Positions 9,753 to 59,151 of a stretch of 64,000 bases of DNA are shown piece after piece (position 1 is the first letter of the stretch; each line of letters starts with the position of its first letter). Source of the stretch: an uncultured Actinomycetes bacterium (GTDB taxonomy: Bacteria > Actinomycetota > UBA4738 > HRBIN12); assembly GCA_963704885.1 (NCBI GenBank), contig CAVPIB010000001.1:32001-96000 (forward strand), read 5' to 3'. Both the position numbers and the translations under genes were made by a program. Below the pieces are notes generated by a model, which ran no database searches, had not been told where the DNA came from, and saw nothing but the letters and a program-made list of their open reading frames with translations.

Positions 9753-12269
9753 CTAGACCTCCGGCGAGGCCTCGGCCACGGCCGATGTCGCCGCGGCGGC
9801 CGGTGTTACCGCGGCCGGTGCCTTGGTGGCCGGCTTGCGAGCACCGCTCTTCTTCGCGGTCGACTTCTTGCGCGCCGTGGGCTTCTTGCGCGCCGCCGGC
9901 TTCTTCTTGGCTTTGGCAGCGGCCCTCGCCTCTCGGGCCTTCGCCTTGGCCGCGCGGACGGCGGCCTCGGCCTCGACGTCACCCGTCTTGGTGACCTTGA
10001 ACTCCAGATCCATCTCCGCGCCGCAGTTCCAGCACTTCACGCTCTTGGGTCGCTGCAGCAGGAGCGACCCGCACTCCGGACACGGATGGTCGGGGATGGG
10101 TGGGTTGCTCACCGCGAGCGTGCACTCGGGATACCGATCGCAGCTGTAGAACGGCGCCCCGAACCGATTCTTGCGCTCGACCAGCTCGCCCTTGGCGCAT
10201 TCGGGACACGTGACGCCGGTCGTCTTGGGCGGCTCCTTCTTGATGAATCGGCACTCGGGGTAGCCGCTGCATCCCACGAATGGACCGTAGCGGCCCACGC
10301 GCTCCTGGAGCTGGCGCCCGCATTCCGGGCAGGTCTCGTCCAGCAGCACCGGCTCAGGGCGGACCGAGCCGTCCATGTTGCGGATGTAACGGCACTCCGG
10401 GTAGTTGGTGCACCCGACGAACTTGCCGAACCGACCGAGCTTCACCTGGAGCTGGCCCGGTTCGCGTCCCTCGGTCGGACAGACCGGGCAGGTCTCGTCC
10501 AGCTCCTCCTCGTAACGCTCGAACGAGTGCTCCGCCTTCTCGAGCGCCCGCTCGAACGGTCCGTTGAACTCGTGCAGGACCTGGGTCCAGCCGATCTGCC
10601 CTTCGGCGATGTTGTCGAGCTCCTCCTCCAGGTGAGCGGTGAAGTTCACATCCACCACGTCGGGGAAGTGCTCGATCAGCTTGTCGGTGACGACCGAGCC
10701 CACGTCCTCGGGATAGAAGCGCTTCTCCTCCAGGCGGACGTAACCGCGGTCCTGGATGGTGGAGATGATCGACGCGTAGGTGGATGGCCGGCCGATCCCC
10801 AGCTCCTCCAAGGTCTTCACCAATGAGGCCTCGGAGTAGCGAGGAGGTGGCTGCGTGAAGTGCTGCTCGGGCAGGACCTCGAGCATCCGCAGCAGCTGCT
10901 CGGCCGTGAGCGCCGGGAGCATGGATTCCGCGTCCTCGTCGGGACCTTCGTCGCGCCCCTCCTTATAGATGCGGATGAACCCGTCGAACACGAGCGTCTG
11001 CCCGGTCGCACGCAGGCCGTATCGCACCTCTCCGTCGCGCGCCTCGACGTCCACGCCGACCTGGTTGAACCGGGCCTCCGCCATCTGAGTGGCGACGGTG
11101 CGCCGCCAGATCAGCCGATACAGACGGAGCTGATCGTGCTCCAGCACGGAAGACATCAGGTCGGGCGTCCGCAGCACGGAGGTGGGGCGGACCGCCTCGT
11201 GCGCCTCCTGAGCGTTGCGCGACCGGGTCTTGTACCGGCGGGGCTCCGCCAGGCCGTACTCCCGGCCGAAATCGGTCGTCACCAGCTCGGCGATCTCGCG
11301 AAGCGCGGTGTCGGCGATGTTCACCGAGTCGGTCCGCATGTACGTGATGAGCCCGACCGAACCTTCGCCGGGAAGACTGATGCCCTCGTACAGCCGCTGC
11401 GCAAGGGTCATGGTCTTGCGCGCCCCGAACCCCAGCTTGCGAGCTGCTTCCTGCTGCAACGTGGAGGTCGTGAAGGGCGGCGCCGGCGAGCGCTTGCGCT
11501 CCTTCTGCTCGACCTTGGCCACGCGGTACGCGGCGCGGTTCAGTCGTTCCACGTGCTGCACGGCGTCCGCTTCCGCGCTGAGATGCACGCCCTTCTTGTC
11601 GGGCGAGGCAGCCACCTTGCCCTCCGGGACCTCGATCAGGCGAGCCACGAACGGCTGCTCCGGGCCATCGTCGGGCGTCAGCCGGACATCCACGCTCCAG
11701 TACTCGATCGGATCGAACGCCGCGATCTCTCGCTCACGTTCGACGATCAAACGGACCGCGACCGATTGCACCCGGCCGGCCGACAGGCCCGGACGGACCC
11801 GTCGCCAGAGCAGCGGAGAGATCCGGTAGCCGACCAATCTGTCCAGCACGCGCCGAGCCTGCTGCGCATCCACCAGCTTCATGTCGATCTCGCGCGGGCG
11901 GCCGAACGCCTCCAAGATGGCGTCCTTGGTGATCTCGGTGAAGGTCACGCGCTTGGCGCCACCCGGCGCGACGCCCAGTAGAGCGGCCACGTGGAAGGCG
12001 ATCGCCTCGCCCTCGCGATCGTAGTCAGTGGCCAGCACCAGGTCATCGGACCTCTTGTAGACCGAGCGCAGCTCGCGGACGTGCCGCTCGGAGTCCTCGG
12101 GCACGACGTACTCGGGCTCGAAGTCGTGCTCGGGATCGACACCCAGCTTGGACTTAGGCAGATCCCGGATGTGCCCATAGGAAGCCCGGACGGTGTAGTC
12201 ACCGCCCAGGTACTTCTCGATCGTCTTCGCCTTCGCGGGCGATTCGACGACGACCAGGGTTTTCGGCAT
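9753..12269 (-). CDS. topA: DNA topoisomerase I with four C-terminal Cys zinc ribbons and a Lys/Ala-rich tail
   Basis: VVESPAKAKTI, ATDYDREGEAIA, SAGRVQS, LITYMRTDS and GIGRPSTYA. Confidence 0.97.
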   Translation of the reverse strand: MPKTLVVVESPAKAKTIEKYLGGDYTVRASYGHIRDLPKSKLGVDPEHDFEPEYVVPEDSERHVRELRSVYKRSDDLVLATDYDREGEAIAFHVAALLGVAPGGAKRVTFTEITKDAILEAFGRPREIDMKLVDAQQARRVLDRLVGYRISPLLWRRVRPGLSAGRVQSVAVRLIVEREREIAAFDPIEYWSVDVRLTPDDGPEQPFVARLIEVPEGKVAASPDKKGVHLSAEADAVQHVERLNRAAYRVAKVEQKERKRSPAPPFTTSTLQQEAARKLGFGARKTMTLAQRLYEGISLPGEGSVGLITYMRTDSVNIADTALREIAELVTTDFGREYGLAEPRRYKTRSRNAQEAHEAVRPTSVLRTPDLMSSVLEHDQLRLYRLIWRRTVATQMAEARFNQVGVDVEARDGEVRYGLRATGQTLVFDGFIRIYKEGRDEGPDEDAESMLPALTAEQLLRMLEVLPEQHFTQPPPRYSEASLVKTLEELGIGRPSTYASIISTIQDRGYVRLEEKRFYPEDVGSVVTDKLIEHFPDVVDVNFTAHLEEELDNIAEGQIGWTQVLHEFNGPFERALEKAEHSFERYEEELDETCPVCPTEGREPGQLQVKLGRFGKFVGCTNYPECRYIRNMDGSVRPEPVLLDETCPECGRQLQERVGRYGPFVGCSGYPECRFIKKEPPKTTGVTCPECAKGELVERKNRFGAPFYSCDRYPECTLAVSNPPIPDHPCPECGSLLLQRPKSVKCWNCGAEMDLEFKVTKTGDVEAEAAVRAAKAKAREARAAAKAKKKPAARKKPTARKKSTAKKSGARKPATKAPAAVTPAAAATSAVAEASPEV

Positions 12270-33816: not shown

Positions 33817-34626
33817 CTAGACGGCCTTGCGGTATAGGCGCACGGCGATCGGCGCGAAGATGGCCAGGATCACGACCGACCACAGGACCGACTTGAGTAC
33901 GAACGATCCGGCGGGTGTCCCGAGCGTGAGCGCACGCACCGCGTCCGCGGTCACCGACACCGGTTGGTTCCTGGCCCACGGCTGCAGCCATCCAGGCATG
34001 TTCGCCACAGGGACGAACGCGGCCGAAGCGAACACCAGCGGCGCCAGCACGGGGAAGGCGGCCGCCTGCGCCGTCTCCGGATCCTTCACCGCCAACCCGA
34101 CGGTCGCGAAGATCCACGACATCGCGTAGCCGAACAGCAGCACCAGCAGGGCGCCCTCGATTACGCCGAGGACGTTCGTGTGGATCCTCCAGCCGACAAG
34201 GAATCCCACGATCATCATGAGGATCACGACGAAGACGTTCCGGACGAGGTCCGCCAGCGTTCGGCCCACCAAGACGGCCGGCGTCCACATCGGGAGAGCG
34301 TGGAACCGTTCCATCAGACCCGACTTCAGGTCCGTCGCCAGGCCCACCGCCGTGGCCAAAGACCCGAAGACCACCACTTGAAGGAAGATCCCCGGCATCA
34401 GGTAATCCACGTAGGGGATCGGACCCGTGTCGATCGAGCCGCCGAAGACGTAGCGGAACATCAGCACGAACACGATCGGCTGGATCGTGGAGAACACCAG
34501 CAACTGCGGGACTCGGAGATACAGCGTCAGGTTACGCCTCATGACGGCGAGCGTGTCGCGGACGCTTCCGAGCGGGATCCGTCGATCGATGTCATCGAGC
34601 GCGGTCAACACCGGAGTGGAGCTCAT
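33817..34626 (-). CDS. ABC-2 exporter permease (DrrB-like)
   Basis: QPIVFVLMFRYVFGG, YLMPGI, MERFHALP and NQPVS. Confidence 0.92.
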   Translation of the reverse strand: MSSTPVLTALDDIDRRIPLGSVRDTLAVMRRNLTLYLRVPQLLVFSTIQPIVFVLMFRYVFGGSIDTGPIPYVDYLMPGIFLQVVVFGSLATAVGLATDLKSGLMERFHALPMWTPAVLVGRTLADLVRNVFVVILMMIVGFLVGWRIHTNVLGVIEGALLVLLFGYAMSWIFATVGLAVKDPETAQAAAFPVLAPLVFASAAFVPVANMPGWLQPWARNQPVSVTADAVRALTLGTPAGSFVLKSVLWSVVILAIFAPIAVRLYRKAV

Positions 34627-35621
34627 GCGGCACCTCCTCGCCGGCGCGAGGTCGGCTTCTCATCGGTGACCATCGCCTCATCCGACTCGGCGTGATGACC
34701 GGTGAGGGAGAGGAACACGTCGTCCAGACTCGGCTCGCGAACCGTGAGGGTGTCCGGCTCCGCGCCGTTGGCGTCCAGGGTCCGCAGGGCGTCGATCAAG
34801 ATGCGGGCGCCGTCGTTCGACGTGATGCGGACGATCTCGTCTTCGCGCTCGACCTGTCCGTTGACGTGCCCGGTCAGCAAGCCGAGGGCCCGCTCCGAAC
34901 CGCCATCCCGATCGAACCGCATCTCGACGACCGTGGTGCCCAGCTGAGACTTGAGGTTCGAGGGCGTGTCGTTCGCGATGACCTTGCCACCGTCGACGAC
35001 CGCGATCCGCTCGGCCAGCCGGTCGGCCTCCTCCAGGTACTGGGTCGTCAACATGACGGTCGTACCGTCGGCGACCAGCCGCTCGATCGTCTCCCACAAC
35101 GTGTTGCGACTGGAGAGGTCGAGACCTGTCGTGGGCTCGTCCAGGAACAGGACAGGAGGATGGGCCACGAGAGAGGCTGCGACATCTAGGCGCCTGCGCA
35201 TGCCGCCCGAGTAGGTTCGCAGCGGCCGGTCCGCAGCATCCGTCAACTCGAACCGCTCCAGCAGCTCGGCCGCCCGTGGCGCCACCTCAGAGCCGGGGAG
35301 CTGGCCAAGGACCCCAACCATCCGGAGGTTCTCGCGCCCGGTGAGATTGGGATCGACGGCGGCGTTCTGCCCGGCAAGACCGATCCGGCGCCTGACGGCG
35401 GCGGCATCGCGGACCACATCGTGCCCCAGCACCTCTGCGCGACCGCCATCAGGCTTCAAGATCGTGGCCAGGATCCTGACGGCCGTGGTCTTGCCGGCCC
35501 CGTTCGGCCCTAGGAGGCCGAAGACAGACCCGATCGGGACCTCGAGGTCTATGCCGCCCAACGCTTCCAGGTCGCCGTATCGCTTCTCGAGCCCCTCGGT
35601 GCGGATAGCGAAGTCGCTCAC
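34623..35621 (-). CDS. ABC exporter ATP-binding protein (DrrA-like)
   Basis: GPNGAGKTT, YSGGMRRRL, LDEPTTGLD and TTQYLEEA; probable GTG at 35621. Confidence 0.93.
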   Translation of the reverse strand: MSDFAIRTEGLEKRYGDLEALGGIDLEVPIGSVFGLLGPNGAGKTTAVRILATILKPDGGRAEVLGHDVVRDAAAVRRRIGLAGQNAAVDPNLTGRENLRMVGVLGQLPGSEVAPRAAELLERFELTDAADRPLRTYSGGMRRRLDVAASLVAHPPVLFLDEPTTGLDLSSRNTLWETIERLVADGTTVMLTTQYLEEADRLAERIAVVDGGKVIANDTPSNLKSQLGTTVVEMRFDRDGGSERALGLLTGHVNGQVEREDEIVRITSNDGARILIDALRTLDANGAEPDTLTVREPSLDDVFLSLTGHHAESDEAMVTDEKPTSRRRGGAA

Positions 35622-35706
35622 AAGGAAGAACCTTCCCACAGATCTCGTCACGGCTTCAGCACACGTCCTGCGCCACTTCGGCACATGCGGGGTGCAGGAT
35701 AGGTCT

Positions 35707-35805
35707 ATGAGCCCAACCAAAGCTATCCGACAAGCACGGTTCCGTTGGCGCCGCTGGCGGTACTACCGGCGATTCCCGTGGCACCGCCCGGACGCACCGA
35801 GCTAG
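35707..35805 (+). CDS. Possible 32-aa Arg/Trp-rich small peptide
   Basis: MSPTKAIRQARFRWRRWRYYRRFPWHRPDAPS*; CAGGAT six bases upstream (leaderless-like). Confidence 0.35.
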   Translation: MSPTKAIRQARFRWRRWRYYRRFPWHRPDAPS

Positions 35806-35820
35806 CGCGTCACCGACGGT

Positions 35821-35957
35821 GTCCACCAGTGGACGCGAGCGGACGAGTGCCCCACCTTCTGCTGTCCACGGGTTCACAGGTGCGACCTGCGGTTCCTGTC
35901 GTCAACAGGTGGACGCCCGACCGGGATCGGCCCTCGCTTTGGAGTCAACAGGTTGAC
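35821..35957. repeat. 137-bp four-palindrome intergenic element, copy 1
   Basis: GTCMAC-NN-GTKGAC boxes at 35821, 35864 (degenerate), 35901 and 35944; gap-free homolog at 43060. Confidence 0.9.
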
Positions 35958-35959
35958 AC

Positions 35960-36469
35960 CTACGTGGCGCTATCTCCACCCAGCTCGAGTGCGGAAGCGA
36001 TCTGGTCGGCCCAGGCGCGGATAGCATCCCAATCACGGAAGTCACCATCGGGCGCCTTCACGGCCTTGACCATCATCCGCTCGCCGAACCCCAGCTTGCC
36101 CCGATCGAGAGCTCCGAAGAAGATCCGGTGCTCGTTCGGCTGGAGGTCGCTCGTGAGCGCCTCCAACTGTTTCGGCTGCTGCTCGTCATCCTCGACCTGC
36201 TCGCCGAGCGGCCCGCTGCTGAACAGCCAGACCGGTAGGGCGGCCAGGACATCCTTGTTCGCTCGCGCGAACTCGACCGCTTCATCCCGCCACGAACCGG
36301 CGTAGACCGCACTCCCCAGAACCACAGCGTCCACGCCATCCAGACCCGGAGCCGCAGCCGCCGAGACCGCATCGGCACTCAGCCCGCGCGCTCGGAGCTG
36401 CTCGGCGATCGCCTCCGCTACCCCCTGCGTCGCTCCGTGCTTGCTGGCGTAGGCGACCAGGACGTTCAT
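35960..36469 (-). CDS. Flavodoxin-domain protein (HemG-like)
   Basis: VAYASKHGAT, LGSAVY, WLFSSGPLG and GDFRDW. Confidence 0.9.
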   Translation of the reverse strand: MNVLVAYASKHGATQGVAEAIAEQLRARGLSADAVSAAAAPGLDGVDAVVLGSAVYAGSWRDEAVEFARANKDVLAALPVWLFSSGPLGEQVEDDEQQPKQLEALTSDLQPNEHRIFFGALDRGKLGFGERMMVKAVKAPDGDFRDWDAIRAWADQIASALELGGDSAT

Positions 36470-36494
36470 CTCGCTGCTCCCTTCTGGCTAGAGA

Positions 36495-36998
36495 TCAGGC
36501 ACTCCGACGCCGAGGCGGCCGGGCCTTTCCACCCATGCCCTCAGGTTTGTAGGTCGCCACCCATTCGTCGTGGGCCGGCGTCTGCTCGCCCACGACGTAG
36601 AGGAACCAGTAGGCGCCGAGTTGCCCCAGGAACTTGAACCGCTTCACCAGATCCTTCTGCAGCGCGTCGTACGCAGGGAACGAGCGCAGGTACTTCTTGA
36701 ACGACCCGTGCTCGCGATCGAGCGACAGCATCGCTTCGGCGTTCTGCACGGTGGCCGTGATCTTCGCCCGGTTGCGGATCAGGCGCGTGTCGGTCACCAA
36801 CGCGTCAACGTCGGCGGGAGTCAGGTTCGCGACGTGCTCGGGGTCGAAGCCGCCGAAAGCTTCGGTGGTCCCTTGCCACTTTGCCTCGACGACCCGCCAG
36901 CTGATGCCTGACTGGAAGACCGCACGCGTCAACACGTCGAGGTAGTCGGCGAGTCCTTTCGGGCGGATCTTCTTCGGCGCGTCCTGCGGCTGCGGCAT
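36495..36998 (-). CDS. DNA-3-methyladenine glycosylase I-like protein
   Basis: VFQSGISWRVV, LIRNRAKI and FKFLG. Confidence 0.85.
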   Translation of the reverse strand: MPQPQDAPKKIRPKGLADYLDVLTRAVFQSGISWRVVEAKWQGTTEAFGGFDPEHVANLTPADVDALVTDTRLIRNRAKITATVQNAEAMLSLDREHGSFKKYLRSFPAYDALQKDLVKRFKFLGQLGAYWFLYVVGEQTPAHDEWVATYKPEGMGGKARPPRRRSA

Positions 36999-37114
36999 AC
37001 GTGACCTCCTCCCCGGAACACGTTATCGCCATATGGCATTCACCGGCGCTTCCGGAGAGGGACGGCCGGGGCGCGGTACGGTCCTTGGCAGGGATGCCGC
37101 ACTCTGGCCGTCAC

Positions 37115-38419
37115 ATGTTCGCTCGCGGACGTCGCAGCTCTCGGCTGGCTGTCCGCGGCCTGTCGCTGGTTGCGGTGGCCGCAGTAAGCGTGGCCGCGGT
37201 GATCCTAGTTCCGTCATGGCTCCGGTCGCGATCCACGGAACCGACCCCTTCGCCCATCGCGGCAGCTCCCTCATGCCCGTCGGCTCGCTTCGCCGGCGAG
37301 GCTGCACTCGGGTCCGTCGTCTGGGTCGATGGCGAGGTCCTCCACCTGCTGGATCTGGACACGTGCGACGAACGGATCCTGGTCGAGAGCGGGGCGGCTC
37401 CCCCGATCCGGTTCAGCTATGACGGCTCCTGGGTCGCGTTCGGCGACGGCGCGATGGTTCCGGCGGGCGGTGGCGAGGTCCAGAGCCCTGTCGGGTCTCT
37501 GGACGACTGGGCGTGGTCACCCACCGACGACGTGCTGGCCGGAGCGACGGCCGGAGGCGGGATGGTGGTCGGTGGTCCAGACGAGGTCCGGCGGGTCCTT
37601 CTAGAGGACGGGTCCGACGTGGGTCACGTCGCGTTCAGCCCCGACGGCGGCTCGCTCGGCGTGGACACCGGCGGAGATCGGGTCGTTGTCGTCGACGTGA
37701 TCGACGGTGCCACGAAGACCCTCTACAGGGTGTCGCCCGGAGCGAAGGCCCCACCACAGGTGACCGGCTGGTCGCCGGACGGTCGTTGGTTGTTGTTCTT
37801 CTCCAGGTTCCCCGGGCGGGCGAGCGTCCCGTTGAACGCCGCCCCCGCCGACGGCGGCGACTGGGTGAACGTGTTCGACCCCGTGCTGCCCTACGACGAC
37901 TTCATCAGCTGGTGTGGACGGAGCGTGGCCCTATCCGGCGGCGCGGAACGGTCGCCGAGCGCTGGGAACCAGATCCTCGTATCGGCTCCGCCCGACTGGC
38001 GTTACCGCAACCTGTCCAAGGACTTCACTCGAAGCTGGATCTGGCCGGCTTGCTCGCCCGACGGCCGGTGGGTCGTCGCGACGGCTACCCCGAACCGCCC
38101 AGAATCGACGCCGGGGCGCGGGATACGAGCCCTGTGGTTACTCGCCACCGACGGCGATCATCGCGCGCGGCTGACCGGACCCGGCAACGCAGCCTTCGAG
38201 ACGGCCCGGTGGTCCGCCGACGGCCGGTTCCTCTTGGTGGTGCGGCGGGGCATCGAACCGACCTCCGACGGCGCCCTTCTCCTGTTGAGTTTCGACCCGG
38301 CCTCGGGCAGGACCAAGCGCGCCGCGGGACCCGTAGCTCGGATCGGCGCCGCCCCGGGTGAAGCCGGTCACACCGACTGGTCCAACACGAGCGACTGGTA
38401 CCGGCCCCCGGCGCCGTGA
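37115..38419 (+). CDS. Membrane-anchored TolB/WD40-like beta-propeller protein
   Basis: N-terminal TM; repeated FSxDG/WSPDG blades. Confidence 0.8.
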   Translation: MFARGRRSSRLAVRGLSLVAVAAVSVAAVILVPSWLRSRSTEPTPSPIAAAPSCPSARFAGEAALGSVVWVDGEVLHLLDLDTCDERILVESGAAPPIRFSYDGSWVAFGDGAMVPAGGGEVQSPVGSLDDWAWSPTDDVLAGATAGGGMVVGGPDEVRRVLLEDGSDVGHVAFSPDGGSLGVDTGGDRVVVVDVIDGATKTLYRVSPGAKAPPQVTGWSPDGRWLLFFSRFPGRASVPLNAAPADGGDWVNVFDPVLPYDDFISWCGRSVALSGGAERSPSAGNQILVSAPPDWRYRNLSKDFTRSWIWPACSPDGRWVVATATPNRPESTPGRGIRALWLLATDGDHRARLTGPGNAAFETARWSADGRFLLVVRRGIEPTSDGALLLLSFDPASGRTKRAAGPVARIGAAPGEAGHTDWSNTSDWYRPPAP

Positions 38420-38453
38420 GCACGCGGCCTTCCCGGGCCGTACCGTGTGCTGC

Positions 38454-39392
38454 GTGTCCGGCGTGATCCAGATCGAAGGACTCCGCAAGGAGTACCGGCG
38501 GCTCCGCGGTGGATCGACCCTCGCCGTCGACGGACTCGACCTGGAGATCCCAGAAGGCGGCGTGTACGGGTTCCTCGGACCCAACGGCGCCGGGAAGACG
38601 ACAACTATCCGCTGCCTGCTCGGGCTGGTGCGACCCTCGGCGGGCAACCTCCGGCTACTAGGTGCCGACGTTCCTCGAGGACTCGCCGGCGTGCTCCCGC
38701 GCGTGGGTTCGATCGTTGAGGAACCCGCGATGTTCGCCCGCTTCACCGGGCGCCGGAACCTGGAGATACTCGCGCGGCTGGACGGGATCGGTAGGGCCGC
38801 GATCGATGCTGCGCTCGAGCGCGTCGGCCTCTCGGACCGCGCCGACGACATGGTGAAGACCTACTCACTGGGCATGAAGCAGCGCCTGGCCCTGGCCGCC
38901 GCGCTGCTGAAGGACCCCGAGGTCCTGGTGCTCGACGAGCCCGCGAACGGGCTCGACCCGGCGGGGATCGTGGAGGTACGCGAGCTGCTTCGAAGCCTCG
39001 GCGCGGAAGGGCGCACCGTCTTCGTCTCCAGCCACATCTTGTCCGAGATCCAACAGACGGCGGATCGGGTGGCGATCTTGTCGCGCGGACGGTGCGTGAA
39101 GGCCGGGCCCGTGCGCGAGGTGCTCGCCGCTGGTGCCGGGGATGGCCTGATCGTCCGGCTGCGGGATCTTGAAGCGGGGCGACAAGCTCTCGCCGCCGCG
39201 GGCTTGCCCGCTGCGGTGTCGGGCGACTCGCTCAGGGTGACGGCCCCGCCCGAGCAATCCGAGCGGATCTCACGCACGCTCGCCGAGCAGGGCCTCTACG
39301 TGACCGAGCTCCGACCCGAGGAGGTCGACCTGGAGACCGTGTTCCTGGAGCTGACCCGCGACCCGGATCCTGCCGAGAGGTCGGACGGTTGA
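38454..39392 (+). CDS. ABC transporter ATP-binding protein (BcrA-like)
   Basis: GPNGAGKTT, YSLGMKQRL and LDEPANGLD. Confidence 0.93.
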   Translation: MSGVIQIEGLRKEYRRLRGGSTLAVDGLDLEIPEGGVYGFLGPNGAGKTTTIRCLLGLVRPSAGNLRLLGADVPRGLAGVLPRVGSIVEEPAMFARFTGRRNLEILARLDGIGRAAIDAALERVGLSDRADDMVKTYSLGMKQRLALAAALLKDPEVLVLDEPANGLDPAGIVEVRELLRSLGAEGRTVFVSSHILSEIQQTADRVAILSRGRCVKAGPVREVLAAGAGDGLIVRLRDLEAGRQALAAAGLPAAVSGDSLRVTAPPEQSERISRTLAEQGLYVTELRPEEVDLETVFLELTRDPDPAERSDG

Positions 39393-40150
39393 TGCGCCTC
39401 GTCCGCTCCGAGTTCCTCCGTCTGCTGTCGCGCAGGATCGTACGAGTGCTGGCGGTCATCGCCGCGATCGGCTTCGTGGTCGGGAGCGTGATCGCGGCGG
39501 TGAACTCCCGCCCTAGCAGCCCGCTACTCCTGTCGCAGCTTCCGGACTTCTTCAAAGGGGTCGCGTTCTTCCTGGTGGTGATCGGGCTGATGATCGGCGC
39601 GTCATCGGTGGGTGCCGACTGGCAGCGGGCAACGTTCGGGACGCTGCTCGTTTGGGAACCGAGGCGCGCGCGGATCCTGCTCATCCGAGTGTGCGTGATC
39701 ATCGTCGTCGTGTTCGCGCTCTCGATGCTGCTGGAAGCACTTCTCGGGCTGACGATCGCTGCGGGCTCGGCCTGGCGAGGCTCGACCGCCGACATCCCGG
39801 ACGCATGGTTGCGGTCTGTTGTGGGCACCGCGGCGCGGATCGGCATCACATCGGCCGTCGTCGCAGTCATCGGTGCGTCGATCGCGTCGATCGGTCGGCA
39901 CACGGCCGCCGCGCTCGGCGCCGTGTTCGTCTATCTGGCCGTGGTTGAAGGCTTCCTACGCGGCCTCGCCACGGATTGGACGCCGAACATGTTGAGCTCC
40001 GCGATCGGGGTATTCGTGGACGGGCAGCCGGGCGATCCCGGTAATGGGTCAGTGCTCTCGGTGGAGCGCGCCCTGATCACGATGCTCGTGTACGCGGGGA
40101 TCCTGTTGATCGCTGCCCTGGTGCTCTTCCGCGCCCGCGACGTGAACTGA
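39392..40150 (+). CDS. ABC transporter permease
   Basis: LVRSEFLRL, GADWQRAT...LVWEPRR and C-terminal FRARDV; start overlaps the ATPase stop. Confidence 0.88.
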   Translation: MRLVRSEFLRLLSRRIVRVLAVIAAIGFVVGSVIAAVNSRPSSPLLLSQLPDFFKGVAFFLVVIGLMIGASSVGADWQRATFGTLLVWEPRRARILLIRVCVIIVVVFALSMLLEALLGLTIAAGSAWRGSTADIPDAWLRSVVGTAARIGITSAVVAVIGASIASIGRHTAAALGAVFVYLAVVEGFLRGLATDWTPNMLSSAIGVFVDGQPGDPGNGSVLSVERALITMLVYAGILLIAALVLFRARDVN

Positions 40151-40161
40151 GCTTCGGCAGA

Positions 40162-41280
40162 TCAAACGCCGACCGCCATCGTCTCGCCGGCTCGACGGCT
40201 CCCCGACCGGCCGTGGAGGTGCTTGACCACGAACGCGGCGTCGCGGCCGACGCCGGGCAGCGTGTCGGAGGTCGCCGCGAACTGGAACTGCAGCCCCATG
40301 AAGCCGAGGCCCGGCTCCGCCGGCACCAGGCCGCGCCGGTGCACGACCTCGCCCGACTCGTCGAAGATAGGCAGGTCTATCCAGGAGAAGTCGCGTCGGA
40401 ACCCCGTGCACCAGATCACGTTGGTCACGTCCAGCACGCGGCCGTCCTCCAGGACCGGCCGGCCGTCTCGCACGTCCGTCACCTTTGGGACCCGCTCGAT
40501 CCCGGCGGCCAGGATGTCCTTCGGCTTCACGCGCACCAGGATGTCGCCGTGCATCGCGTCGTGCCTCTGCATCTTCCGCCCAAGGGGCGTTCGCAGCGTT
40601 AGCACGTGTTGCCCCGCGAACCGAACGATCCGGATCAAGAGGTGCCGCGACACGAACGTCTCTATCCGGAACGGCACGTGGCCTGTGTCAGGTCCCGAGA
40701 GCCACGTTGGATGATCGCGGATGACTTCCATCGAGATATCGGCACCGGAGTTGCCGGCGCCCACCACCAGCACGCCGCCTTCACGGAGCTGGGCTGGGCC
40801 CCGGTAGTGGCTGGAATGCAACTGCACTATCGAGGGATCCAGCCGGTCGGCGAACACCGGGGTCCGCGGCGTGCGGTTGGCGCCCGTGGCCACGATCACG
40901 CTGTCGGCCTCGAACCGATCCTCTCCCGCCGACACGATGAACCGTCCATCCTCCTTCCAGAGCCGATCGACATGGACGTTGCTGCGAACCGGGAGGTCGA
41001 ACCCCTCGGAGTAGGACTCCAGGTAGTCGGCCATCTGATCCTTCGAAGCGAAGCTCGAGCCGGGCGCGGGGAAACGCCCCCCCGGTAACCCGGCGTATCG
41101 AGCGGGCGTGAACAGCAGGAGCGAGTCCCACCGCTTCCGCCACGCATCTCCGACCCTCGACTCGGCATCCAGTATCACGAAACGCCGTTCGACCTTCCTC
41201 AGGTGGTAGCTTGCGGCGAGCCCGGCCTGTCCCCCTCCGATGACGATCGTGTCGACCCATTCCACACCGTTGCTGCTCAT
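40162..41280 (-). CDS. Flavin-containing monooxygenase-like NAD(P)/FAD oxidoreductase
   Basis: GGGQAG, WRKRWDSL, LHSSHY, VVGAGNSG and IWCTGF. Confidence 0.9.
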   Translation of the reverse strand: MSSNGVEWVDTIVIGGGQAGLAASYHLRKVERRFVILDAESRVGDAWRKRWDSLLLFTPARYAGLPGGRFPAPGSSFASKDQMADYLESYSEGFDLPVRSNVHVDRLWKEDGRFIVSAGEDRFEADSVIVATGANRTPRTPVFADRLDPSIVQLHSSHYRGPAQLREGGVLVVGAGNSGADISMEVIRDHPTWLSGPDTGHVPFRIETFVSRHLLIRIVRFAGQHVLTLRTPLGRKMQRHDAMHGDILVRVKPKDILAAGIERVPKVTDVRDGRPVLEDGRVLDVTNVIWCTGFRRDFSWIDLPIFDESGEVVHRRGLVPAEPGLGFMGLQFQFAATSDTLPGVGRDAAFVVKHLHGRSGSRRAGETMAVGV

Positions 41281-41373
41281 CGTTCGCCTCCGTTCGTCGT
41301 TCTGACGGTCGACCCTAGGCGTGCAGGTCATGCGCGCTCATCGCCGGAACCAACCAACCTCGGAAACACCTGT

Positions 41374-41393
41374 CGTGGTGAAGATTGACCACG
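41374..41393. promoter_or_regulatory. Inverted repeat CGTGGT-N8-ACCACG upstream of the FMO gene; putative site for the adjacent LuxR
   Basis: 6-bp inverted repeat in the LuxR-FMO intergenic region; function inferred. Confidence 0.4.
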
Positions 41394-41406
41394 CCAGGAG
41401 CGGGCG

Positions 41407-42954
41407 TCAGGCCAGACCGTGCTCGAACGCGAACGCCGTAGCGGCCGCACGGGATGAGACGTCGAGCTTCGCGAAGATGTTCTGCAGGTGCCGGGCGACG
41501 GTGTGTTCGCTGATCACCAGTTCCACGGCGATGTCGCGGTTCGTGCGCCCCGTGGCCACGAGGCGGAGCACTTCCGCCTCACGCGCCGTGAGCCCGCGCG
41601 GCAGATCCGAAGGATTAGCCAGGAGCTCGCGGACCGTCGTGGCGTCGGGCACCGCGCCCAGTCGTTCGAACGCTGACAGCGCCGCACGGAGCTCCATCGC
41701 CGCGTCGTCATCGTCGCCGGCGGCCCGCAGGGCCAGTCCGTAGGCCTTCCGAGCCAGCGCGGCCTCGTACGGGAGCCTGAGTTCCTGCCAGACGGTGCAT
41801 GCATGCCGCAACCGTTCGATCGCCCCTTGCACGTCGCCCTCGACCAGACGGAGCGTCCCTCGAGCCGCGGCAGCGGCCGCGTCCAGGGCCGGCACCTTCG
41901 CCTCAGCGGCGATCGCTTCGAGCTCGGATACGGCCTGGCGCGCGACGTCGAGGTCACTCATGGAGCTCGCGATGTCGACCTGTGCGGCAAGGAGCCGCGC
42001 GCGTCTGGCTATCCCGTCCGTTCCGGCTTCCAGCGAAACACGCAGCGCATGCAGCGCGGCGTCCGCCTTGCCTTGCGTCACGCGCAGGAGGGCAAGGCCG
42101 GGCTGGGGATCGAACCCGATCTCACGCGCGCGATCGAAGCACTCCCGCGCACCCTCGAGGTTTCCGATCCGGCGGCGGATCTCCCCTGCCTCGTACAGAG
42201 CTCGGCCGGCGATCATCGGGTCGTACACCACACCCTCGGCGACCATGGAGGCCTCGGTCTCCGCCTCTAACCACGCCCCGCGAAGGCCGGCGACCTCTGC
42301 GCGGTTGATCCGACAGAGCGCCGTGAATGGCGCATCCGGCGGCATGGTCGAGCACCAGGCAACGGCGGCGTCGCTCCACTCCCCGGCCCGACCGACGTCG
42401 GAGAGGCCTAGGCACGCCTCGAGGACACTGCAGTAGATAACCCCGGTGAAGTGCGAGCCCAGCTCGCCGGCGATCACGGAGATCATCGCCTCATCCAGGA
42501 GGGCCAACCCTGCACCGATCTGGCCGCCACCGATCGTGATGCGACCCTGCGCGTGGATTGACATCGCGGTCAGGTCTGGATCGCCGAAGCGCTGCCCGAT
42601 CTCCGTCGCGCTCTCCGCGAGCCGCAGCGCGGTCTCGTGCTCGCCCATCTCCAGCGCGACGTAGCCCTGCGCCATGGAGACGTAGCCGTGCTGAACGCAC
42701 GGTGCGACGTCCTGTAGATCGCGTTCCGCGCGCTTGAGCCAGCCCATCCCGATCGAGGGCTCGCCCCGATCGAAGTGTTCGAAGCAGAGGCGGACCGCGA
42801 CGGACGCGGCGGACGGACCATCACCCGCTGCCGAGTAGCCGGAGTGGGCGCGTTGGCGCAGGGCGAGCGCCTCGTCGAGCTCGCCGACCCACCACGCGGC
42901 ATCGGCCGCCCGCTCGAGTTCCGCGGGGTCGGTGGCGTCGGATCCATCGGACAT
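41407..42954 (-). CDS. TPR-like plus LuxR-HTH transcriptional regulator
   Basis: C-terminal LTAREAEVLRLVATGRTNRDIAVELVISEHTVARHLQNIFAKL. Confidence 0.92.
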   Translation of the reverse strand: MSDGSDATDPAELERAADAAWWVGELDEALALRQRAHSGYSAAGDGPSAASVAVRLCFEHFDRGEPSIGMGWLKRAERDLQDVAPCVQHGYVSMAQGYVALEMGEHETALRLAESATEIGQRFGDPDLTAMSIHAQGRITIGGGQIGAGLALLDEAMISVIAGELGSHFTGVIYCSVLEACLGLSDVGRAGEWSDAAVAWCSTMPPDAPFTALCRINRAEVAGLRGAWLEAETEASMVAEGVVYDPMIAGRALYEAGEIRRRIGNLEGARECFDRAREIGFDPQPGLALLRVTQGKADAALHALRVSLEAGTDGIARRARLLAAQVDIASSMSDLDVARQAVSELEAIAAEAKVPALDAAAAAARGTLRLVEGDVQGAIERLRHACTVWQELRLPYEAALARKAYGLALRAAGDDDDAAMELRAALSAFERLGAVPDATTVRELLANPSDLPRGLTAREAEVLRLVATGRTNRDIAVELVISEHTVARHLQNIFAKLDVSSRAAATAFAFEHGLA

Positions 42955-43059
42955 GGCTTCCGACCCTACCCGAGGGAGGCGGGACCGGTCGTCCGCTTGG
43001 CCCCTGCACGTGACGCGATCCGCGTTCAGGGTTCGGTTCTTCGGCCACCCGTTCGACCC

Positions 43060-43196
43060 GTCAACCGGTTGACACGAACGGGCGGGCGCCCCACCACCGG
43101 GTGTCCACAGATTCACACGTGCGACCTGCGGTTTCTCTTGTCAACATGTGGACGTCCGCCGTGGAAAGTCCATCGTCGTCGCGTCAACCGGTGGAC
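43060..43196. repeat. 137-bp four-palindrome intergenic element, copy 2
   Basis: Boxes at 43060, 43103 (degenerate), 43140 and 43183; same 43/37/43 spacing and GTGCGACCTGCGGTT core as copy 1. Confidence 0.9.
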
Positions 43197-43270
43197 ACCC
43201 GCCCCCTCGCACCACCTGCCGGGCCCCCGCTCCGACCGACTTCGCCGACCTGGCTGCTCGTCGGCCGCCG

Positions 43271-44152
43271 CTAAAGCTCGCGGAGGTACTGGGCGACGGC
43301 GCTCAGGTCGCGACCCGCGAACCCGGCCTCGAGCGCCAGGCCGACCGTCTCCCGGTTCTGGATCGCCTGATCCATCCGGGCGCCAACCTCCCGCGCGAGA
43401 TCGAGGATCAGATCGAGATCCTTCGCCATCAGCTCCAAGAGGAACGCGGGCGGCGTCTCATCGGGATGCTCGAACGCCGCTCGCTTGTACAGCACGAACG
43501 GCGCAGCGGCGGCGCCGGCGGCGAACACGTCGTACGCGGCGCTCCGATCGACCCCGGCCTTCTCGGCGAGCACGAGCGCCTCCGAGAGCCCGACGTCGAT
43601 CGCGTGGATCAGCGCGTTCACGGCGAGCTTGACGGTGGCTCCCGCGCCGAGCGCACCGACGTGGAATACATCGGCAGCGAGCGCGCCTAGGACGGGCCGC
43701 GCGCGCTCTAGCGCCGCGCCGTCGCCGCCCACCATGATCGTGAGCTTGCCCTTCTCCACCGCGGGCACGCTGCCCGAGACCGGAGCGTCGAGCAATGTCG
43801 CGCCCTGCTCTTGGACCAGCGACGCGACACGGCGAACCGTCGCGGGCGCGATCGTGCTCATCTCCAGGACGATCTGCCCTTCGTGCAGGCCGGCGAGGAC
43901 GCCGGCAGGCCCCTCGTACGTCTCGAGCACCGCCGCGTCGTCGGCCAAGCTCGAGATCACCACGTCCACTCCGGCTACCGCGTCCCCGGCGGTGTCCGCC
44001 ACTTCCGAGCCGGTGCGTTCGGCGACCTCCTGGGCGGCGGCGGCCGTTCGGTTCCACACGCGCACGGGGAACCCGGCTCGCCGGAGCGTCGCCGCCATCG
44101 CGCCACCCATGCGCCCCATACCGACGACGGCCACCGCCATCGGCGTCGTCAT
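43271..44152 (-). CDS. Beta-hydroxyacid (3-hydroxyisobutyrate-type) dehydrogenase family
   Basis: VGMGRMG, DAPVSGS, KLAVN and MAKDL. Confidence 0.92.
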   Translation of the reverse strand: MTTPMAVAVVGMGRMGGAMAATLRRAGFPVRVWNRTAAAAQEVAERTGSEVADTAGDAVAGVDVVISSLADDAAVLETYEGPAGVLAGLHEGQIVLEMSTIAPATVRRVASLVQEQGATLLDAPVSGSVPAVEKGKLTIMVGGDGAALERARPVLGALAADVFHVGALGAGATVKLAVNALIHAIDVGLSEALVLAEKAGVDRSAAYDVFAAGAAAAPFVLYKRAAFEHPDETPPAFLLELMAKDLDLILDLAREVGARMDQAIQNRETVGLALEAGFAGRDLSAVAQYLREL

Positions 44153-44850
44153 GTCAGCGACCAACCTCCGTCGATCCGCAGCTCCGTCCCGTGCATCGAC
44201 GGATTCTCCAGCAGGAACACGGCTGCGTCGGTCACGTCGCGCATCTCGACCAGACGTCCGGTTGGGGTCTTCGCGCGCGTTGCCTCGAGCGCCTCGGTCT
44301 TCGGCGCCCAGAACGGGCTGTCCGCCACGATCCCGGGATGCAGCGCGTTCACTCGGATCGGAGGGAGCTCCGCGGCCATCGTCCGGACCAGTCCGTCCAC
44401 CCCGTGGTTGATCGTCGTGATCGTCGTGGAGCCCGGATACGGGCGCAGCTTCGCGAGGCCCCCATAGATGACGATCGACGCGTCGGGCGTGAGCCGCCCG
44501 AGCAGCGCGTGGACCGTTTCGGTGTAGCCCACGAGCTTCAGGGTGACCAGGCGGATCGCCTTCACGACGTCGTAGTCGGCGACGCTGTTGAGGTCGCGGT
44601 CGAGGGCCGCCAGGGCGAGCCGGTCGACGGTGCCGATCCCCGCGAGCCCCGGGGCGATCGTCTCGGGCTCGGACAGGTCGAACGCCGCGCTTCCCACGTT
44701 CTCGCCCAGCTCCCGGGCGGCGGCGGCGGCACGCTCCGCGTCGCGGCCCGTTACGACGACCTGGCGCCCCGCCTCGGTGTAGTGCCGCGCGAGGTCACGC
44801 CCGAGCCCCTGGGTCCCGCCGATCACGACCACGGTTCGTTCGTCTGTCAT
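44149..44850 (-). CDS. Atypical short-chain dehydrogenase/reductase
   Basis: VIGGTQGLG and PIRVNALHPG; no canonical YxxxK motif. Confidence 0.85.
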   Translation of the reverse strand: MTDERTVVVIGGTQGLGRDLARHYTEAGRQVVVTGRDAERAAAAARELGENVGSAAFDLSEPETIAPGLAGIGTVDRLALAALDRDLNSVADYDVVKAIRLVTLKLVGYTETVHALLGRLTPDASIVIYGGLAKLRPYPGSTTITTINHGVDGLVRTMAAELPPIRVNALHPGIVADSPFWAPKTEALEATRAKTPTGRLVEMRDVTDAAVFLLENPSMHGTELRIDGGWSLT

Positions 44851-58341: not shown

Positions 58342-58452
58342 GTTCAGGGACACTACATACCTTGCCGCGGTTTTGCCAGATAAGGAGGAAGCGCCTAGGG
58401 TGCGATTCAGCCATGCTGCACACACGAACCACGACTAGCAGTCTCACTGATG
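58342..58452. promoter_or_regulatory. Three CAG-N5-CTR boxes in the divergent promoter region; putative XRE-cupin operators
   Basis: GTTCAGGGACACTACAT (58342), ATTCAGCCATGCTGCAC (58405) and TAGCAGTCTCACTGATG (58436). Confidence 0.45.
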
Positions 58453-58512
58453 CCCGCGCAAGGAGAGTGTCAAGCGTCTATCCTGCCTGCGTCGAGCGGA
58501 ACTGAGGGCGGG

Positions 58513-59151
58513 ATGGCCGGCGAGCTTGAGGACATCGGGACCAGGTTGCGCGAGGAGCGCGATCGCGTGGGCATCAGCCAGCGAGAGCTGGCCCGCCGTA
58601 TCGGGTTGTCGGCCAGCATGATCTCGCAGCTGGAGTCGGGGCAATCGAAACCGTCCGTCAGCACGCTGTACGCGATCGTCACCGAGCTCGGGGTCTCCCT
58701 GGACGACGTCTTCCGCGGAACCGAAGGCCACGCGTCGGTCGAGCGGACGAGCGTCGGCGGACCGTCCGAAGAGGCGGAGCACGATCCGGTGGTCCGTCCC
58801 GAGGAGCGCCACGTGATCGACCTGGCATCGGGCGTGCGATGGGAACGCCTCACCAGCCACCAGCATGAGGACGTCGACTTCCTCCACGTGATCTACGACG
58901 TCGGGGGTTCCTCCGCGGGAGACACCGTGATGATGCGCCACCCCGGGCGGGAGTACGGATACGTGCTCTCGGGCTACCTTGGCGTCCAGCTCGGATTCGA
59001 GGAGCACAAACTGGGGCCGGGCGACTCGATCGCGTTCGACTCGACCCAGCCGCACCGCCTCTGGAACCTGGGCGAGGAACCGGTGCACGGGATCTGGCTC
59101 GTCGTGGGACGTGACGGCCACGACGGACATGGCCCGCACGGCGAGCGGTAA
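58513..59151 (+). CDS. XRE-HTH plus cupin transcriptional regulator (PuuR/SutR-like)
   Basis: SQRELARRIGLSASMISQLESG, HPGREYGYVLSG and PHRLWN. Confidence 0.92.
   Translation: MAGELEDIGTRLREERDRVGISQRELARRIGLSASMISQLESGQSKPSVSTLYAIVTELGVSLDDVFRGTEGHASVERTSVGGPSEEAEHDPVVRPEERHVIDLASGVRWERLTSHQHEDVDFLHVIYDVGGSSAGDTVMMRHPGREYGYVLSGYLGVQLGFEEHKLGPGDSIAFDSTQPHRLWNLGEEPVHGIWLVVGRDGHDGHGPHGER

Follow-up and report, generated by a model that had tools for sequence, protein, structure and literature searches.

Two four-box elements and the genes around them

The subject of this work is a pair of short non-coding elements in a 64-kb stretch of DNA (64,000 nucleotides, hereafter the window) from an uncultured Actinomycetes bacterium (GenBank assembly GCA_963704885.1, contig CAVPIB010000001.1, positions 32,001 to 96,000). 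The window is ordinary high-GC chromosome (~67% GC, with topA, tmk and holB). It holds eight 14-bp palindromes, or boxes, of the form GTCMAC-NN-GTKGAC, which make up two 137-bp clusters with spacing 43/37/43, named W1 (window copy 1) and W2 (window copy 2). An earlier, sequence-only reading of the window had put the box starts at 35821, 35864, 35901 and 35944 for W1 and at 43060, 43103, 43140 and 43183 for W2, with this same spacing, and our own reading of the sequence agreed with it throughout. The elements and their neighbouring genes are as follows (boxes are given no strand).

35821..35957, minus strand: W1, four-box module of 137 bp, from reading of the sequence; orientation set by the centre
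35821..35834: W1 box 1, perfect; the box nearest the ABC operon
35864..35877: W1 box 2, 1 mismatch, ..TTCAC half-site
35878..35900, minus strand: W1 centre, 23 nt; related to the centres of the family described below
35901..35914: W1 box 3, perfect
35944..35957: W1 box 4, perfect; 2 nt short of the stop codon of the flavodoxin gene
43060..43196, minus strand: W2, four-box module of 137 bp, oriented as W1
43060..43073: W2 box 1, perfect; the box nearest the LuxR gene
43103..43116: W2 box 2, 2 mismatches, ..ATTCAC half-site
43117..43139, minus strand: W2 centre, 23 nt; 19/23 identical to the W1 centre
43140..43153: W2 box 3, perfect
43183..43196: W2 box 4, perfect
33817..34626, minus strand: ABC-2 type permease, in an operon with the DrrA-like ATPase
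34623..35621, minus strand: DrrA-like ABC ATPase, first gene downstream of W1; GTG start 199 nt from box 1
35960..36469, minus strand: flavodoxin-domain gene, 3' end abutting W1
40162..41331, minus strand: flavin monooxygenase-like oxidoreductase, directly 3' of the LuxR gene
41407..42954, minus strand: TPR + GerE (LuxR-family) regulator, 515 aa, first gene downstream of W2; ATG 105 nt from box 1
42963..42968, minus strand: candidate -10 hexamer TAGGGT, 8 nt before the LuxR ATG; proposed from sequence only, by analogy with a conserved MarR promoter (see below)
43271..44164, minus strand: 3-hydroxyisobutyrate-dehydrogenase-like gene, 3' end 74 nt from W2

Both elements are intergenic and lie between minus-strand genes, each of them upstream of a gene start. 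The ATPase gene starts at the GTG at 35621, which is preceded by a ribosome-binding site (GGAAGG). For the LuxR gene, the open reading frame (ORF) can be extended by 162 nt upstream, and it would then overlap W2; however, the GC contents of this extension at second and third codon positions (0.65/0.74, compared with 0.52/0.83 in the body of the gene) are non-coding-like, so that the longer ORF is not credible and the start is the ATG at 42954. The earlier claim of direct orientation was confirmed, as was, once these gene starts were applied, the claim that both copies are intergenic, and it can be added to that reading that W1 and W2 are co-oriented upstream of gene starts. The monooxygenase-like gene may form one operon with the LuxR gene. 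The TAGGGT hexamer, if it acts as a -10 element, would make the LuxR promoter a leaderless type situated ~90 nt from the W2 array. Terminator-like sites in the region 35500-43500 occurred at chance frequency, with none at W1 or W2.

A search of the window for the pattern GTCMACNNGTKGAC with no more than 1 mismatch gave 7 matches where 0.86 were expected (7 or more were obtained in 0/100 shuffles), and all 7 fall inside W1 and W2. Outside the two elements there were 10 single sites with 2 mismatches; as the 18 window sites found at up to 2 mismatches compare with 8.4 expected from shuffles, these single sites are at chance level. W1 and W2, which are 7,239 bp apart in direct orientation, align over 137 bp without indels and are about 75% identical. 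The sequence-only reading was also correct in describing spacers of 29/23/29 nt that have kept their length in both copies and yet diverged (identity is 36/58 in the outer spacers, made up of 20 + 16, and 19/23 in the centre) and a ..TTCAC half-site in box 2 that is degenerate alike in W1 and W2. Directly beyond the outer boxes the similarity is at chance, and the base composition between the two elements is unremarkable. The 29-nt spacers, followed outward from the inner boxes, tend to open with a G-rich run (GGYGGNGG); this start is GGTGGGGC in both W1 and W2 (spacers 35835-35863 and 43074-43102) and appears on one side or both in the relatives.

A family of elements with conserved geometry

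A scan of 185,579 species genomes for two perfect boxes separated by 20-40 nt, a range that meant the spacing was tested and not assumed, yielded 65 loci (given L numbers here). Seven further four-box elements were present in 6 of these (L002, L006, L013, L028, L058 and L050), which come from 4 metagenome-assembled genomes (MAGs) of Actinomycetota; L050 carries two elements, L050a and L050b, 5.2 kb apart. The sequence-only reading had named the existence of these two window copies and no others as one outcome that would tell against it, and it is a family found in four other Actinomycetota MAGs that has emerged. The copies detected number up to 3 per Actinomycetota MAG and 2 in the window, and these counts are lower bounds, two perfect boxes having been required (L050b alone would have escaped). 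No catalogued repeat or operator of such form came up in literature searches, and among the 65 loci nothing matched the window except an ABC operon in L013.

The spacing of the seven further elements was 43/36/43 in 6 and 43/37/43 in 1. Taking the nine canonical elements together (W1, W2 and these seven), the outer spacers are exactly 29 nt in 18/18 cases and the centre is 22 nt in 6 and 23 nt in 3. Spacer identity between genomes is mostly 20-31/58, compared with 17.7 +/- 3.5 in a background of shuffled sequences. The conservation of geometry while spacers drift, which had been claimed for the two window copies, therefore extends to all seven further elements, and the retention of spacer length while the sequence drifts indicates selection on geometry. 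In a logo of all 36 boxes, 11/12 specified positions stand at 32/36 or higher before M and K are pooled, and the gap between half-sites is 2 nt in every box, each being a 6+2+6 palindrome.

The centre is related across the family (..GAAC.CGCWGGT.. in one orientation, which in W1 is the minus strand) and is the sole clearly asymmetric part of an element that is otherwise roughly dyad-symmetric. Orientation is read, unambiguously, from the centre alone, given the rough dyad symmetry of the outer spacers as well; for the same reason we rejected the idea that some copies have a centre turned round with respect to their outer spacers. Two promoter readings of the centre were likewise discarded. As a sigma-70 promoter it would have TTGAC in the inner box followed after 17-18 nt by A(T/C)NNGT, which is not TANNNT, and as an extracytoplasmic function (ECF)-type promoter it would have just 14 nt from GAAC to CGTC.

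Seven further loci carry variants assembled from canonical parts.

L027: an extra 43-bp unit
L011: three 36-bp units, then the core
L057: runs of 45-bp and 43-bp units, broken by an assembly gap
L005: three boxes at 43/43
L029: core only, box-23-box
L024: two boxes at 44 bp
L045: two boxes at 42 bp

Copies within one genome are each other's nearest relatives. This holds for W1 and W2, which in addition to the identities given above share the degenerate half-site and a 23-nt centre, and for L006 and L050a (41/58 in the outer spacers and 18/22 in the centre). Homology also stops at the outer boxes. Together these observations indicate that the module was duplicated, or converted, as a whole. The signatures of a mobile element were absent. 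No consistent target-site duplication was found (3-4-nt chance matches in 4/9 elements, nothing in 5/9), and Pfam scans of 108 ORFs from 12 family loci, and of the window ORFs covered, revealed no RAYT, transposase or recombinase; for the window, the sequence-only reading had reported neither of the latter two. The same ORFs included no ParB/SopB-type or integrase gene, and blastn gave no plasmid or phage match.

Several side observations concern the surroundings of these elements or the wider use of the box. Genes for TPR/STAND-type regulators (TPR-GerE, cyclase-AAA_16-TPR, TPR_MalT and AAA_16) occur within ~6 kb of four family elements, at window 41407-42954, L005 4528-7917, L013 5512-6789 and L050 8469-9332; such genes being common in Actinomycetota, this recurrence may be due to chance. 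Type II toxin-antitoxin genes, PemK/MazF-like and Phd/YefM with PIN, adjoin L050a (L050 9-326 and 1201-1886). The box 14-mer also occurs in unrelated tandem arrays (L007 from Prevotella, L008 from Acidobacteriota, L017 from Nitrososphaerota, L064, L003 and L021/L043/L055) with periods of 18, 32, about 46-59, 57 and 36-40 bp. Two Myxococcaceae MAGs contain a ~140-bp dyad-symmetric interspersed repeat, at 15 and 11 loci (26 in total), composed of four of the same 14-bp box at a spacing of 21/14/21 with GC-rich outer inverted repeats, and extending ~45 nt beyond the box cluster on each side. The central dinucleotides of its partner boxes are not complementary, which means that a hairpin does not maintain this repeat. 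It lies beside MarR genes in L031/L049 and L042. The loci concerned are listed in two parts.

Myxococcaceae repeat, part 1: L004, L009, L010, L012, L023, L025, L026, L030, L031, L033-L035, L037
Myxococcaceae repeat, part 2: L039, L040, L042, L044, L046, L048, L049, L052, L053, L056, L061-L063

MarR-family genes beside the boxes

In L002, L006, L028 and L058 an orthologous MarR gene (69-76% amino acid identity) starts 60-90 nt downstream of the element, and in 3 of these 4 loci the opposite side of the element faces a divergent gene for a diacylglycerol kinase (DAGK)/YegS-like kinase. The core neighbourhood of the MarR locus is kept (glnA, a GlnR-like regulator, cysH, ATP sulfurylase, RsiG and asparaginase II). 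It is rearranged in L002, with a DUF2269 gene in between; there the element stands beside the MarR gene and the DAGK promoter is kept without an element. A search with the actinobacterial MarR protein returned 47 matches, from the sources ncbi, jgi, ena, lgn or metaclust, whose names were generic MarR-family labels (one of them from an Actinomycetota MAG), one ArsR-family label and 'hypothetical protein', and a sequence search of the PDB gave weak MarR-family matches only (best E = 4.5e-4). The actinobacterial MarR is a narrow, uncharacterised, lineage-specific family. Its members share a C-terminal tail beyond the MarR fold (..LRPP..R.WW[LF]D; L006 325-789 and orthologues) that is missing from the other box-adjacent MarRs and could mediate dimer-dimer contacts.

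Box pairs also adjoin MarR genes in Saccharopolyspora (L001, L016), Agromyces (L015, L060), Propioniciclava (L051), Bacillus (L054, a divergent MarR/MFS pair) and Myxococcaceae (L031/L049, L042). A profile was built from nine box-adjacent MarR proteins and run on the 5,735 ORFs of at least 90 aa in 1,039,152 bp of box-locus DNA. It gave 14 matches at E<1e-3, and 14/14 lay within 226 bp of a perfect box, a zone estimated at about 3% of the DNA searched; the 5 weaker matches distant from boxes were LysR, HxlR or HTH_11 proteins and not MarR. The recognition helix opens with V-S/T-R/K-Q in 5/7 MarR lineages. Between the actinobacterial proteins and those of the Myxococcaceae loci L031/L049, which are elsewhere ~30% identical, the start of the helix (VSRQ) and the wing (VRV) do not vary; at L042 the helix is generic. 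The box represents a type of operator found repeatedly next to MarR genes, a point that goes beyond the sequence-only reading.

The module is polar with respect to genes. In tandem-gene contexts (W1, W2, L002, L013, L050b and L027) the centre points along transcription in 6/6, and in the three divergent MarR/DAGK loci, counted as one evolutionary event, it is directed at the DAGK gene. A gene start follows ~50-200 nt downstream in 8/9 canonical elements. The elements are nearer to the stop codon of the upstream gene (2-82 nt) than to the next gene start. Alignment of orthologous flanks identified the MarR core promoter as a leaderless type (TA.AACT, 5-6 nt, ATG, with a conserved ATGTC motif before it) and the DAGK core promoter as an extended -10 (TG.CATACT) ~16 nt before the ATG.

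Conserved MarR/DAGK promoter regions: L006 760-893, L028 9905-10014, L058 10123-10230, L002 10123-10230; L006 1002-1150 and orthologues

Other regulators near boxes were considered. In L032 and in three Ramlibacter species (L014, L041 and L047) a conserved pair of the palindromes, 37 bp apart (boxes near 10001/10038 and 5983/6020), is flanked by genes for a class II aldolase and an XRE-cupin regulator, which diverge in the Ramlibacter loci. The window contains an XRE-cupin gene (58450-59151), which is unlikely to encode the binder of W1 and W2: its product is 29% identical to the box-adjacent XRE-cupins of Ramlibacter, the helix differs and there is no box upstream of it. A 160-aa gene downstream of the HR12 element (L027) was examined as a MarR candidate and is not MarR-like (hhalign probability 0.05%). 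Between W1 and W2 the plus strand (region 37001-40150) carries genes for a second ABC ATPase (38358-39392) and, with it, a probable permease (39389-40150), as well as a 472-aa ORF (37001-38419) that has no Pfam family; no box was found upstream of these plus-strand genes.

Interpretation and comparison with known systems

We consider that, on balance, the module is probably a four-operator array for a MarR-type regulator, positioned upstream of core promoters and belonging to a small, geometry-conserved family in uncultured Actinomycetota that has spread by duplication of whole modules. The multi-dimer protein-DNA scaffold suggested by the sequence-only reading is the best supported of its proposals. 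Each 137-bp element would be a cis-acting nucleoprotein platform with four dyad-symmetric operators, each predicted to fit one winged-helix dimer of a MarR-family regulator, and the geometry under selection would be 43/36-37/43 bp from centre to centre. Such a spacing would place both boxes of an outer pair on about the same helical face and the two pairs on opposite faces. The ancestral copy of the family would be the one directly upstream of the regulator's own gene, with later copies put in front of unrelated operons by whole-module duplication. W1 and W2 would then tie the operons of the DrrA-like ABC exporter and of the TPR-LuxR regulator (with the monooxygenase) to one MarR-type regulator encoded elsewhere; we infer that an orthologue of the actinobacterial MarR is the binder in the source genome and that its binding controls the downstream genes. 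The recognisable core promoters are 30-120 nt downstream of the arrays, at a distance that varies, so the arrays probably work as a cooperative upstream platform or as a block to read-through, and not by covering the promoter.

A number of results weigh against this interpretation. No MarR-family gene is present in the window, so that the binder in the source genome is unseen, and a sigma-70 promoter scan of 35500-43500 returned 0 sites, with none in or beside W1 and W2. At the MarR and DAGK genes the nearest box is 29-120 nt upstream of the core promoter, at variable distance and without overlap, which is unlike classical MarR operators; boxes overlap a promoter only in the simpler relatives L005 and L051. 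The canonical element L050a is placed between convergent genes, a setting in which a promoter is not expected, and so are the variants L011, L057 and L024; the core-only variant L029 is followed by the 3' end of a gene. The 14/14 association with MarR genes comes from a test that is partly circular, in that the loci were chosen for their boxes and the profile was made from box-adjacent proteins; the new matches are L051, L005 and L042 only, of which L005 is ArsR-type and L042 has the generic helix. The box is not exclusive to MarR, as box pairs lie beside XRE-cupin regulators in the four loci described above (three Ramlibacter spp. and L032). Tandem expansion of units gives the element a repeat-like look in some genomes. 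Finally, the ABC operon of L013, whose ATPase is 65% identical to that of the window, has no element, so that the link between array and genes is not ancient.

The serious rival, which is unlikely in our estimate, is that the element is an interspersed mosaic repeat resembling the bacterial interspersed mosaic elements (BIMEs) or repetitive extragenic palindromes (REPs), semi-selfish or architectural and without a gene-specific regulatory role, bound perhaps by a nucleoid protein or a topoisomerase, or serving as a block or insulator at gene ends. The sequence-only reading had offered a REPIN/BIME-like element, and the second half of that suggestion fits: the element is a mosaic of palindromic units and fixed-length linkers, expandable into tandem runs of period 43, 36 and 45 bp (L027, L011 and L057), and its modules were apparently copied whole. 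Such a repeat would also account for the four elements between convergent genes, for the proximity to upstream stop codons, for the close similarity and sharp homology edges of copies within a genome, and for the compact four-box element of the same box type at 26 loci in Myxococcaceae. The REPIN half did not hold, given the low number of copies detected, the absence of a RAYT from the ORFs scanned, and the lack of hairpin covariation and of target-site duplication, and these same points count against a repeat with no regulatory role, as does the fact that four genomes have, in spite of rearrangement, kept one copy upstream of the MarR gene, together with the strong association of box and MarR gene. 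This rival is compatible with the array interpretation, since one module may be dispersed as a repeat and also serve as an operator array. It is much less probable that the binder is the TPR-LuxR regulator itself, autoregulated through W2 and controlling the ABC exporter through W1. GerE-type HTH (helix-turn-helix) proteins do bind palindromes as dimers, the gene lies directly downstream of W2, and STAND/TPR-type regulator genes occur within ~6 kb of 3 other family loci (L005, L013 and L050b); however, tblastn found no homologue beside the 7 other canonical elements, the sole match being a GerE domain 6 kb from L005, and it is a MarR gene that the same architecture adjoins in four genomes.

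We give little credence to a role in RNA or single-stranded DNA, in which pairing of box with box would create a structured 3'-UTR (untranslated region) stabiliser, a terminator or a leader. The boxes are able to pair with one another, the polarity along transcription in 6/6 tandem contexts would suit a transcribed element, and fold z-scores were -1.8 to -2.5 in 3 of the 4 strands folded, but the remaining strand folds no better than shuffles (z = -0.73). The signatures of a conserved RNA were absent as well: Rfam at gathering thresholds recognised no family in the whole window, there are no U-tracts, the alifold covariation term was +0.41 (that is, none), with the variable M/K positions unpaired in 3/9 sequences, and in the Myxococcaceae relatives the partner boxes lack complementary central dinucleotides. 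That the element serves a DNA transaction, as a res-like site, a centromere or partition site, a DnaA-titration cluster or a pair of attL/attR-like borders of a 7.2-kb island, is hardly tenable. Most of these options had been raised by the sequence-only reading, and four dimer-sized palindromes in ~137 bp, the direct repetition of W1 and W2, a 43-bp period that recalls plasmid centromere repeats and the likeness of some half-sites to the DnaA box speak for them. Nevertheless, recombinase, integrase and ParB-type genes are missing from the window and from the 12 family loci, no plasmid or phage match was obtained, and the family occurs mostly as single copies, at chromosomal loci unrelated to one another. 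A res site is further contradicted by the single half-site spacing of all boxes, which differs from that of res subsites. With respect to DnaA, GTCCAC accounts for 19/72 half-sites and GTCAAC for 45/72, and in the nine elements only 7 sites come within 1 mismatch of the 9-mer that the sequence-only reading had quoted as the actinobacterial DnaA box. As borders of an island, W1 and W2 are only ~75% identical, and the composition between them is unremarkable.

If the four-operator array is the correct interpretation, this would be an unusual MarR architecture, with four dimers 36-43 bp apart and upstream of the promoter, and such a layout is a hint of a higher-order complex or of read-through control. 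It predicts that, in an uncultured lineage of Actinomycetota, one regulator serves both an ABC exporter and a LuxR-type regulator, and the signature box, 29, box, 22-23, box, 29, box could be used to map the regulon in MAGs. A bolder proposal, which we put forward tentatively and with more doubt than confidence, is that the module acts as a self-contained cis-regulatory cassette, which spreads in one piece and wires new operons to one MarR-type regulator, the Myxococcaceae version being the same process at copy numbers like those of miniature inverted-repeat transposable elements (MITEs). Bacterial regulons are usually thought to grow by the chance appearance of single sites. A fixed-geometry module of four operators, conserved between genomes and copied whole to new operons, would be a different route, in which cassettes are duplicated and the regulon grows without sites having to evolve de novo; it would parallel the transposon-borne enhancer cassettes of eukaryotes and, if true, would mean that the operator array of a transcription factor can behave as a mobile genetic element in bacteria.

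Several known systems resemble the module in part. The BIMEs of enterobacteria consist of palindromic units (REP or PU) and linkers, are often found near the 3' ends of genes and are thought to be protein-binding platforms. The module is likewise an extragenic mosaic with fixed classes of linker length (29 and 22/23 nt) and a variable number of units; it differs in its low copy number, in having an operator-type palindrome beside MarR genes, in lacking hairpin covariation, and in its unique polar centre and, in the canonical form, strict four-box geometry. BIMEs bind IHF or gyrase and have units of alternating orientation; in the module the symmetry of the boxes leaves a unit with no defined orientation. 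REPIN/RAYT systems share with it short non-coding palindromic modules at several intergenic sites and the greatest similarity between copies of one genome, but the module has perfect 6+2+6 dyads where REPINs have imperfect hairpins, was detected in at most 3 copies per MAG, and is accompanied by no RAYT or transposase in the DNA examined. A MITE has terminal inverted repeats flanked by a target-site duplication, and no consistent duplication of that kind borders the nine elements. The sopC locus of plasmid F is made of 43-bp tandem units with one inverted repeat each, and the 43-bp centre-to-centre period, the single palindrome per unit (predicted here to bind a dimer) and the expandable units of L027 and L057 are reminiscent of it; however, the module is chromosomal, present at several loci, without a ParB/SopB-type gene nearby or a plasmid match, and its 36-37-bp central step with the conserved polar centre has no counterpart in sopC. 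The Myxococcaceae repeat has the same 14-bp box, four to an element, overall dyad symmetry and one copy at a MarR gene encoding the VSRQ helix, and is set apart by its 21/14/21 spacing, its GC-rich outer inverted repeats, its presence at 15 and 11 loci and its occurrence in a different phylum.

Among MarR-family repressors, a precedent is MexR of Pseudomonas aeruginosa, which reads GTTGA/TCAAC half-sites in two adjacent boxes, PI and PII (bioRxiv 10.1101/2024.04.02.587325). PI/PII and the module have in common palindromic boxes of one-dimer size, the GTTGA/TCAAC pentamer, the arrangement of several boxes side by side, and the location of one copy in the regulator's own upstream or divergent intergenic region. 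MexR has two boxes where the module has four, its half-sites form GTTGA-N5-TCAAC whereas those of the module face inward as TCAAC-NN-GTTGA, and its footprints are 3 bp apart compared with 36-43 bp between the boxes described here. In the Actinomycetota family, moreover, the arrays are found upstream of core promoters and not on them, and unlinked loci carry the entire module in an unchanged geometry.

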